The notes beneath the pieces are model-generated. The model ran no database searches, was not told the DNA's origin, and saw only the letters and a list, made by a program, of their open reading frames with translations. 17,765 nt of DNA from Giardia intestinalis (lineage: Eukaryota). The stretch lies in assembly GCA_000002435.2 (NCBI GenBank), contig AACB03000033.1; one strand, given 5' to 3'. Made by a program: the position numbers and the translations under genes. This document shows positions 9,432 through 11,262 of this stretch, piece after piece. Every line of letters starts with the position of its first letter. The first letter of the stretch is position 1.

Positions 9432-9575
9432 TGGAGTGAGATATGCACAAAGGCTGAGGGAGGACTGTGCACTGCTTGTAAGGCAGATAACGGCCTGTTC
9501 AAGAACCCGGCTGCAACACCAGAGAAGGGTAGTGAGTGCATACTGTGCTCTGATACGACAGATAGAAACGGGGTC

Positions 9576-11195
9576 ATGGGAGTCGCTGGATGCTCAGAAT
9601 GCTCCCACACGGGCACTAGCGGACCGGCCACGTGTACAGAGTGTCAAGCAGGGTTCGTTACGAAGGACAGTGCATGTGTGAAGTGCGGAGACGGCTGCTC
9701 TGCTTGCTCAGCTGATACTCCGACTCAGTGTACCGCCTGCGTTGAGGGGAAGTTCCTGAAGGATGGTAACACTTGTGTAGAGGCTACTGAATGTGGTGCT
9801 GATAAGTACGCAGACAAGAAGACCTGGACCTGCAAGGCATGTGATCCCGACATAGCTGGGTGCACCGCATGTGAATATAATGATGCCACGGGGAAGCCAA
9901 GGTGCACTAACTGCGGGACCAATAAGACCCCCAGGACGACCCTTGATGGGACCTCGACCTGTGTGACAAAAGACTACGCCGGGTGTCAAGGAGCTGATAA
10001 CGGTCTCTTTATGACCGAAGACAACGTGTGTCGTTTGTGCAGTGATCCCGCAGCGTCGGATTCAGAACCAAAGAACAAAGGCATTGCCGGCTGCAAGACA
10101 TGTACTAAGCAGCAAAGTCAGAAACCAGAATGCATAGAATGCCTCGAAGGGTATATCAAAGAAGGAAATGGCCCTGCCGCCACGTGTGAGGCCTGTGGTG
10201 CTAACTGTGCCACATGTTCTGAAAAAGCTGACAAGACCAAATGCCAAACCTGCAAGACCGGGTTCTTCCTGAAGGTCAGTAGCACTCCTGGAGAATGCTT
10301 CGCCTGCGATGACACAAACAATGGGGGCATCGAGGGGTGCTCCCAATGCACAATGGAGGCCAGTACTTTCAAGTGTACTGACTGTAAGGTGAACTATCGC
10401 AAGCAGAGTGGTACCAGTCCTGTTACATGTACAAAGGTATGTGAAGATGATACTGCCTGTGGGGGTACCTCTGGTGCTTGTGATGCCATGATAATAGATG
10501 ATCAGGGCACCACAAAGCACTACTGTTCATACTGTGGGGATAGCAGTAAGTATCCTATAGATGGTCTCTGTGCTAGTGAGGCTCAAAGTAATACTTGTAA
10601 CAACCATGTCTGTGAGTCTTGTACTACAGGATATTTCTTATATATGGGTGGTTGTTATAGCACTCAGAGTCCACCTGGACAACATATGTGCAAGACAGCA
10701 GCCAACGGTGTCTGTACCGCTGTTAATGAGAATAATAAGTACTTCCTGGTACCAGGGGCATCCAATGCTCAGCAGTCCGTGTTGGCATGTAGTAACCCCC
10801 TAGGCACACTAGTAGATCCTCAAGGTACCGCTAAGGCATATGTGGGGGTAGATGGCTGTTCGGCATGTACGGCCCCAGCAGCTCTGTCTGATGGTGGTAT
10901 GACTGCCGCTGTGTGTACCTCCTGTGACAGTGGTAAGGTGCCCAACAAGGACGGCAGTGGGTGTGTGACATGCTCTGTGGGTGATTGTAAGAGCTGTGTG
11001 ATGGATAATATATGTGAAGAGTGCAACAGTGGTTTCAGCATAGACAGCAGTGGGGCCTCCTGTGTGTCTATGAGTACCAACAGGAGCGGGCTCTCCACGG
11101 GGGCCATCGCGGGGATCTCCGTCGCTGTGGTCGTCGTCGTGGGGGGCCTCGTGGGCTTCCTCTGCTGGTGGTTCATATGTAGAGGGAAGGCATGA
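9576..11195 (+). CDS. vsp: VSP-family protein, unit 6 (type E, 539 aa from the first ATG; frame open from 9432). Most divergent member. The FICRGKA tail is encoded by synonymous variant codons.
   Basis: The first ~75 aa match units 4 and 8 ([13 protein letters not shown]...[14 protein letters not shown]). The middle is unique, with patches of type A ([43 protein letters not shown]). The C-terminal module matches unit 5. GGCY is present ([12 protein letters not shown]). The tail reads ttc ata tgt aga ggg aag gca tga. Confidence 0.85.
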   Translation: [539 protein letters not shown]

Positions 11196-11262
11196 CTCAG
11201 GTAGTGAATGCTATACAATGTGTGATAATGGGTAATAGAGGGTGATAGTGTGATAGTGGAGT
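11196..11262 (+). repeat. Inter-unit spacer (D-type). PolyA signal 11203-11209. Variant 5' flank TGACTCAGGTAGTGAAT.
   Basis: Same as 7580-7646 apart from the first 11 nt (the unit-6 3' flank TGACTCAGGTAG). TAG 11254-11256 precedes the frame opening at 11257. Confidence 0.8.

Follow-up and report, generated by a model that had tools for sequence, protein, structure and literature searches.

Mosaic structure and a divergent conserved tail in a cassette of a head-to-tail variant-specific surface protein array of Giardia intestinalis

Results

We describe here a tandem array of variant-specific surface protein (VSP) sequences in Giardia intestinalis and one member of it, unit 6, a patchwork coding sequence whose conserved tail differs from that of its neighbours. 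The array fills the window, by which we mean the whole 17,765-nt stretch of DNA that was analysed (contig AACB03000033.1), and consists of ten head-to-tail VSP units, all on the plus strand. Nine of them carry the ending CWWF-x-CRGKA-TGA, their stops lying at 1834, 3718, 5653, 7579, 9380, 11195, 13110, 15036, and 16962, and unit 10 is incomplete, the end of the window cutting through it. Each unit consists of a 51–72 nt spacer and an open frame of 579–624 codons, and the spacer contains stop codons and GTGATAG-like repeats as well as the poly(A) signal of the unit before it. The frames open with WS[V/E]ICT, which corresponds to a point ~105 residues into a full-length VSP (P0002, for example), and no unit of the window has an initiator ATG or leader at the start of its frame; the VSP initiator element (Inr) PyAATGTT is absent from both strands of the whole 17.8-kb window. 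As developed below, unit 6 is very probably a pseudo-VSP cassette of the lineage of VSP S7 that lies in a head-to-tail pseudo-VSP linear array and has been shaped by recombination. The array most likely belongs to assemblage A and is WB-like.

Unit 6 is an open frame of 587 codons plus TGA (9432–11195, plus strand), preceded by a 51-nt spacer (9381–9431) that is identical to the one before unit 4. Besides the poly(A) signal of unit 5 and GTGATAG-like repeats, this spacer has stop codons in frame with unit 6; on inspection it is not AT-rich. The protein matches the Pfam family PF03302 ‘Giardia variant-specific surface protein’ (E = 5e-44), all of its database relatives are Giardia VSPs, and it contains 70 Cys residues (11.9%), 26 CXXC motifs, one GGCY, a transmembrane segment, and the CRGKA tail. 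The extended VSP poly(A) signal ACTCAGGTAGTGAAT lies at 11195–11209 (AGTGAA hexamer at 11203–11208), where the other units have ACTTGGGTAGTGAAT. The slightly longer sequence ACTCAGGTAGTGAATGC at 11195–11211 overlaps the stop codon and fits the consensus ACUUAGRUAGURAAYRY except for a C in place of U at position 4, whereas the signals of the neighbouring units depart from it at position 5 instead. The first in-frame ATG is at residue 49 (9576–9578) and is the start used in the deposited 539-aa VSP S7; by inspection only, no hydrophobic core of a signal peptide follows either the WSEICTKAEGG start or ATG 9576.

A VSP has been defined by a signal peptide, CXXC motifs, a transmembrane domain, CRGKA, Inr, and an extended poly(A) signal (Rodriguez-Walker et al. 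2022, bioRxiv 10.1101/2022.03.07.483299). Measured against the features of expressible VSPs in that work and in Xu et al. (2020), unit 6 has the family match with CXXC and GGCY, the C-terminal transmembrane domain with CRGKA, and the extended poly(A) signal, but it lacks the start codon with Inr and the signal peptide. The features of array pseudo-VSPs (Adam et al. 2010; Xu et al. 2020) are present, namely head-to-tail neighbours at short spacing and a CRGKA frame without a proper start or leader. Lacking a start codon, a signal peptide, and an Inr, unit 6 cannot give rise to a surface protein on its own.

Alignment of the units with MAFFT, together with identity plotted in sliding 60-nt windows and a catalogue of the exact runs, shows that the mosaic structure of unit 6 is real and far beyond chance. 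Maximum chi-square values of 92–186 were obtained at informative sites, with breakpoints near 9830 and 10812–10885, and none of 1000 permutations reached values as high. The 5’ block (9432–9753) is 100% identical to unit 4 and 97–100% identical to unit 8, and with the spacer it makes up an exact run of 373 nt with unit 4 (9381–9753 against 5654–6026), bearing out the first-pass annotation, which had equated the start and spacer of unit 6 with those of units 4 and 8. As protein this block is shared with S7, XP_001705627.1, and P0002. It gives way to an S7-type core (9754–10830) that is only 50–80% identical to the other units of the window and whose protein is identical to VSP S7 (AAN52102.1). 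The core carries two patches of type A sequence, an exact 37 nt common to units 1, 3, 7, and 9 (9902–9938, in the CGTNKTPRT region) and an exact 45–56 nt common to the type A units (10673–10728, the match ending at 10717 or 10728); type A stretches had been noticed here at first reading, and runs as long as these occurred in none of 2000 codon-position-preserving shuffles of the middle region.

Beyond the core the relationships change over short distances. A block of 149 nt (10831–10979) is 100% identical to unit 5 (9016–9164) and is followed by a segment rich in A/T-ending codons (10980–11062) that departs from unit 5. The earlier description of the C-terminal ~110 residues as equal to unit 5 therefore needs correction, since 10840–11110 has only 93.7% nucleotide identity to it, with 17 mismatches that all lie after 10979 and change several amino acids, and since the 68-nt transmembrane block (11107–11174; G+C content at third codon positions [GC3] of 0.96) matches unit 4 exactly, and not unit 5. 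The junctions on either side of unit 6 repeat earlier ones of the array, unit 5/6 being 97.8% identical to unit 3/4 and unit 6/7 being 95.9% identical to unit 4/5. At a much smaller scale, units 3 and 9, otherwise near-identical, have 12 differences within 38 nt (5194–5231 versus 16503–16540), and units 4 and 8, also otherwise near-identical, have five within 13 nt (7507–7519 versus 14964–14976); such tight clusters look like very short conversion tracts.

The tail patch (11175–11199, plus strand) distinguishes unit 6 from every other unit by seven transition differences. Unit 6 ends TTC ATA TGT AGA GGG AAG GCA TGA, where eight of the eight other complete units have TTC GTG TGC AGG GGG AAG GCG TGA, and the 3’ flank is CTCAGG where the same eight have CTTGGG, the patch running from the ATA codon through the CTCA behind the stop (as a 27-mer, the haplotype is ATATGTAGAGGGAAGGCATGACTCAGG). 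The differences fall at 11175, 11177, 11180, 11183, 11192, 11198, and 11199, a span of 25 nt. Codons and flank are as the first-pass annotation gave them, with four synonymous third-position changes and one V to I change; we looked for nonsynonymous or frame-disrupting differences, and the changes are synonymous or conservative and the frame is intact. The patch is bounded by sequence that matches the unit 4/unit 5 junction exactly, for 68 nt before it and for at least 201 nt after it, through the spacer into unit 7. Because seven differences are packed into 25 nt between identical flanks, the tail is likely to be a swapped or retained haplotype, and not the product of slow divergence in place. 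We also considered a burst of G-to-A mutation within the patch, which is less likely because one of the changes is T to C, and which is further disfavoured because other VSP loci also have Ile, GCA, and CTCAGG and because XP_001703931.1 ends in exactly the same 45 residues.

Synonymous divergence at the 3’ end had been taken as peculiar to unit 6, but two synonymous versions of the conserved 3’ block run through the units, one in units 1, 2, 3, 7, and 9 and the other in units 4, 5, 6, and 8 (the last 117 nt; e.g. 1715–1831 versus 7460–7576). One serine of the block, for example, is encoded by AGT in the first group and TCC in the second. FICRGKA is the most frequent tail of the CRGKA-ending family proteins that were retrieved, with 39 cases as against 20 for FVCRGKA and 11 for FLCRGKA. 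Other Giardia contigs contain the further codon sets ATC TGT CGT GGA AAG GCG and ATC TGC CGC GGA AAG GCG, so CRGKA is under purifying selection throughout the family. GCA-TGA and CTCAGG are also found in other Giardia contigs, although none of the retrieved loci contains, as DNA, the exact seven-site combination (ATA TGT AGA ... GCA TGA CTCAGG). The tail of unit 6 is thus best regarded as a standing alternative haplotype of the VSP family, characterised by FICRGKA, A/T-ending codons, and the ACTCAGG flank.

The best database match of unit 6 is VSP S7 (AAN52102.1; UniProt Q8I8W2), a 539-aa protein that begins at the same internal Met as ATG 9576. Residues 49–473 of unit 6 are identical to S7, so that the middle of the unit, which had been called unique, is so within the window but not outside it; there are 16 differing positions at residues 474–582, and the differences include SMST for SSGA, VVVVV for VVAVV, and FICRGKA for FVCRGKA. 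The WB protein XP_001705627.1 equals unit 6 over residues 31–412 except at four sites, and its switch from unit-4-type to S7-type sequence lies ~13 codons further 3’ than in unit 6; because this junction is shifted, XP_001705627.1 appears to be an independent mosaic. The 2007 Sanger-era WB fragment XP_001703925.1 matches residues 49–289 with one mismatch. There are three WB-type paralogues that share the S7 core and differ at their ends.

The full-length, leader-bearing VSP P0002 has 142 residues identical to unit 6 (residues 44–185) together with a FICRGKA tail, and extends ~105 residues further at its N-terminus, with a leader beginning MFQLIPLFVASALMAAC. The WB protein XP_001703931.1 is identical to the last 45 residues of unit 6 (SMSTNRSG...VVVVV...FICRGKA). 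At the DNA level, 10974–11062, which takes in the A/T-ending-codon segment, has a near-identical counterpart in a lone VSP remnant of G. intestinalis DH that ends GCA TGA, and a stand-alone VSP in another assembly (L001) has exact runs with 10794–10840 and 10989–11032 (the latter 44 nt, within the same segment) and a CTCAGG flank. Almost every ‘private’ piece of unit 6 therefore occurs elsewhere in the VSP family. An exact-product look-up returned no record of the 539-aa unit 6 product, and look-ups of the unit 4 open reading frame (ORF; 576 aa) and of the WB proteins P0002, P0004, and P0024 were likewise without an exact match. No exact donor was found for the C-terminal 133 residues, the best match being 88% identical overall with the identity confined to sub-blocks. 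A scan of metagenome contigs for WWF-x-CRGKA-TGA gave no matches, the collection evidently being without Giardia. The DH remnant itself (L005; AHGT01000047.1, 10001–10339) is a solitary 112-aa VSP 3’ end situated directly behind an ankyrin/RING-type gene; a 15-nt deletion takes out its WWF-x-C, and its annotation reads ‘DnaJ-type Zn finger domain protein’.

Nei-Gojobori comparison of unit 6 with the other unit types gives ratios of nonsynonymous to synonymous substitution (dN/dS) of 0.13–0.32, with dS at ~1–2.7 and saturated. Over the last 39 codons the proportion of synonymous differences (pS) exceeds that of nonsynonymous differences (pN) several-fold (ratio 0.15–0.42), and 80 of the 83 Cys-containing alignment columns show Cys or a gap only. 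Because of the low pN/pS, the low dN/dS, and the conserved Cys columns, we conclude that the units evolved as coding sequence. The nine complete frames (16,473 nt) contain no nonsense codon and no frameshift; since 4.15% of random substitutions give a stop, neutral divergence from the time of last constraint or refresh is bounded at ~0.44%, and at ~0.13% when indels are added at an assumed rate. Long-standing decay of the array is therefore excluded. The isolated differences between near-identical copies offer too few sites to gauge present-day constraint; units 1 and 3 give a dN/dS of ~1.1 on ~20 changes, of which many fall together at the indel-shifted, error-prone 5’ end of unit 1.

The frameshifts of unit 10 were considered as signs of decay and rejected, as relative to unit 2 there are only four 1-nt homopolymer indels (17091, 17650, 17696, and 17725, within 16963–17765) and no substitutions; a similar indel is present in unit 1 at window positions 21–27. 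Because these frame-breaking indels are homopolymeric, lie at the window ends, and have no accompanying substitutions, they are probably sequencing errors. Their presence at both ends suggests that the contig ends are poorly polished and that the window is the whole of a small contig.

The preserved CRGKA had been read initially as evidence of purifying selection on the tail, and the units as being, or recently having been, functional. Constraint of a coding type is upheld by the dN/dS of 0.13–0.32 and is family-wide, but selection on the unit 6 copy itself is an unjustified extension, as the selection signal reflects VSP family history and so provides no evidence for unit 6 expression. That unit 6 itself is, or recently was, a working gene does not follow, since its tail is a recombined family haplotype, and independent gene function is contradicted by its lack of an initiator ATG, leader, or Inr.

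Several other features of the array are worth recording. Units 1–2 and 9–10 form a higher-order duplication with 99.3% identity over 2.64 kb (1–2639 versus 15130–17765), and duplicated segments that cross unit boundaries are the pattern that unequal crossing-over would produce. Unit 7 (11196–13110) is also chimeric, with its spacer and first ~490 nt matching unit 5 (96% with 7445–8069) and the remainder being type A (97.7% with unit 1). The GTGATAG-like 10-nt repeats of the spacers vary in copy number, giving totals of 51–72 nt (e.g. 3719–3790 and 15037–15099), and the old WB annotation of XP_001705627.1 takes such a spacer as its N-terminus in translation (MLYSDSDSAMW...). GC3 along single units swings between 0.25 and 0.90 (40-codon windows, plus-strand frames), and in unit 6 the 0.96 of the transmembrane block stands against 0.33 for the six tail codons; this patchiness is consistent with mixed origins. 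Antisense ORFs of up to 369 aa oppose the VSP frames (e.g. minus strand 1343–2452 and 6942–7859). An Rfam search found no structured RNA family in the window and the long minus-strand ORFs have no Pfam family matches, for which reason we take the antisense ORFs to be spurious, probably a by-product of codon composition.

Discussion

The structure of unit 6 suggests a very probable history for it as an S7-lineage pseudo-VSP cassette. The cassette retains the VSP body, the transmembrane segment, the CRGKA tail, and the poly(A) signal, and starts ~105 residues into the mature protein. Its patchwork very probably arose by homologous recombination, in the form of both unequal crossing-over and short-tract gene conversion, with other array members and VSP genes elsewhere as the exchange partners. 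Exchange is probably seeded by the conserved blocks, these being the spacer with the 5’ ICT region on one side and the 3’ transmembrane/CRGKA/poly(A) block on the other. The tail could have been imported by a tract of up to ~130 nt, or could have been retained when homogenisation gave the neighbouring transmembrane block the array version. The sequences directly show the family membership, the lack of expression signals, the mosaic with its breakpoints, the clustered tail changes, and the occurrence of the pieces in other VSPs; any direction of exchange, the transcriptional silence of the array, and its use as a donor archive for new VSPs are inferred.

Some observations weigh against this history. 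Import of the tail by conversion rests on the clustering of its differences and on protein-level matches, and a nucleotide-level donor of the exact tail was not retrieved. The error-like indels at the ends of the window show that the assembly is imperfect, so that an error of the consensus could conceivably have produced a junction. The intact frames in all nine complete units also leave room for some selection on the cassettes.

The array could be a maintained archive of leaderless VSP cassettes whose frames are kept open by selection and which serve as donors for short-tract (~15–150 nt) conversion into expressible VSP genes, a proposal that we regard as tentative. If it is true, Giardia would have a DNA-level, trypanosome-like route of diversification beside the accepted epigenetic and RNA interference (RNAi)-based switching, and unit 6 would be a snapshot of segment traffic with base-resolved breakpoints and with pieces in common with a full-length VSP.

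It is unlikely that the array is dead DNA, that is, a set of decaying, discarded VSP genes without a role whose coding appearance is inherited through recent duplication, although this is one of the alternatives offered by Adam et al. and agrees with the lack of start codons and of a promoter element. The differences between near-identical copies are indeed too few and isolated to show constraint, and the unit 1/unit 3 dN/dS is ~1.1. However, 16.5 kb of frame in nine units is free of nonsense and frameshift even though the unit types differ by dS of at least 1, the sole indels are homopolymeric, error-like, and at the window ends, and the S7 core is protein-identical in three paralogous copies.

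That unit 6 is, or very recently was, an independent functional VSP gene whose tail diverged in place under purifying selection is very unlikely. We note that its 587-codon frame is intact, with Cys residues, CXXC, transmembrane segment, CRGKA, and poly(A) signal all kept, that the tail changes are synonymous or conservative and dN/dS is low (0.13–0.32), and that a 539-aa product from ATG 9576 has been deposited for the near-identical S7. Nonetheless, no signal peptide follows any candidate start, there is no Inr, and the spacer is 51 nt and non-AT-rich. The seven tail differences fall in a 25-nt interval with sequence identical to unit 4 on either side, the tail and terminal block recur in other VSPs, and published criteria put such units among the pseudo-VSPs.

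It is highly improbable that some junctions of unit 6 are a chimeric consensus of mixed reads from similar repeats, a suspicion prompted by repeats that are 95–100% identical over hundreds of bases and by homopolymer indels at both window ends that suggest a small, weakly polished long-read contig. The tail patch and S7 core are in no other unit of the window, which makes within-window collapse impossible as their source, and the Sanger-era XP_001703925.1 reads across the 5’ junction just as assembled here (residues 49–289, one mismatch), with S7 independently confirming residues 49–473. RNAi control of VSP expression is present in the Giardia literature. There is scarcely any likelihood that the array is kept as an antisense or small-RNA template for RNAi-type VSP silencing instead of as a recombination donor, as nothing from the window itself speaks for this beyond conserved 3’ blocks that would offer family-wide targets, the window has no structured RNA family and its minus-strand ORFs have no family matches, and the G. 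muris arrays are reported to be untranscribed (PMC7641422).

We therefore return to unit 6 as a recombined pseudo-VSP cassette, which is a well-resolved case of a feature already published, namely the Giardia pseudo-VSP arrays with mosaic members. The WB annotation includes 133 VSPs and 208 pseudo-VSPs (Xu et al. 2020, PMC7000408), and the ‘linear arrays’ described in WB contain up to 10 vsp genes with ~60 bp between them, the downstream ones without Inr; pairs within them have long stretches of 100% identity, there is statistical evidence of recombination, and the arrays were proposed to serve as cassettes for recombination or else to consist of discarded genes (Adam et al. 2010, PMC2996952). 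Pseudo-VSPs also retain the extended poly(A) signal with the consensus given above (bioRxiv 10.1101/2022.03.07.483299). The published G. intestinalis arrays are like the window in their ~60-nt spacers, the absence of start, leader, and Inr, the 3’ end, the poly(A) signal, and recombination, and nothing essential differs. What the window adds is the base-level breakpoints of one cassette and a tail haplotype unlike its nine neighbours. The practical value is modest and lies in those breakpoints, with exchange tracts as short as 13–40 nt, and in the caution that synonymous divergence in a recombining family is not readable as selection on the copy that carries it.

Switching between VSPs in Giardia is considered to operate at the epigenetic or post-transcriptional level, and the view of antigenic variation in this organism as proceeding without DNA rearrangement would change if cassettes were shown to donate to expressed VSPs. 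The VSG pseudogene arrays of Trypanosoma brucei, with its mosaic VSGs, MSG of Pneumocystis, vls of Borrelia, pilS of Neisseria, and msp2 of Anaplasma are silent-cassette archives, and like the array described here they contain promoter-less, often 5’-truncated copies whose frames stay open and whose segments are exchanged. Transfer of segments into an expression site has been demonstrated in those systems, whereas in Giardia use of the array as a donor is a plausible but unproven hypothesis. In G. muris, the pseudo-VSP arrays are reported to be untranscribed and to bear traces of exchange with intact VSPs, by recombination or gene conversion (PMC7641422). These telomere-adjacent arrays contain leaderless VSP copies as the window does, but they belong to another species and have a GCRGK tail, and it is for pseudo-VSP arrays that the comparison with trypanosomes and Pneumocystis has already been drawn (PMC7641422).

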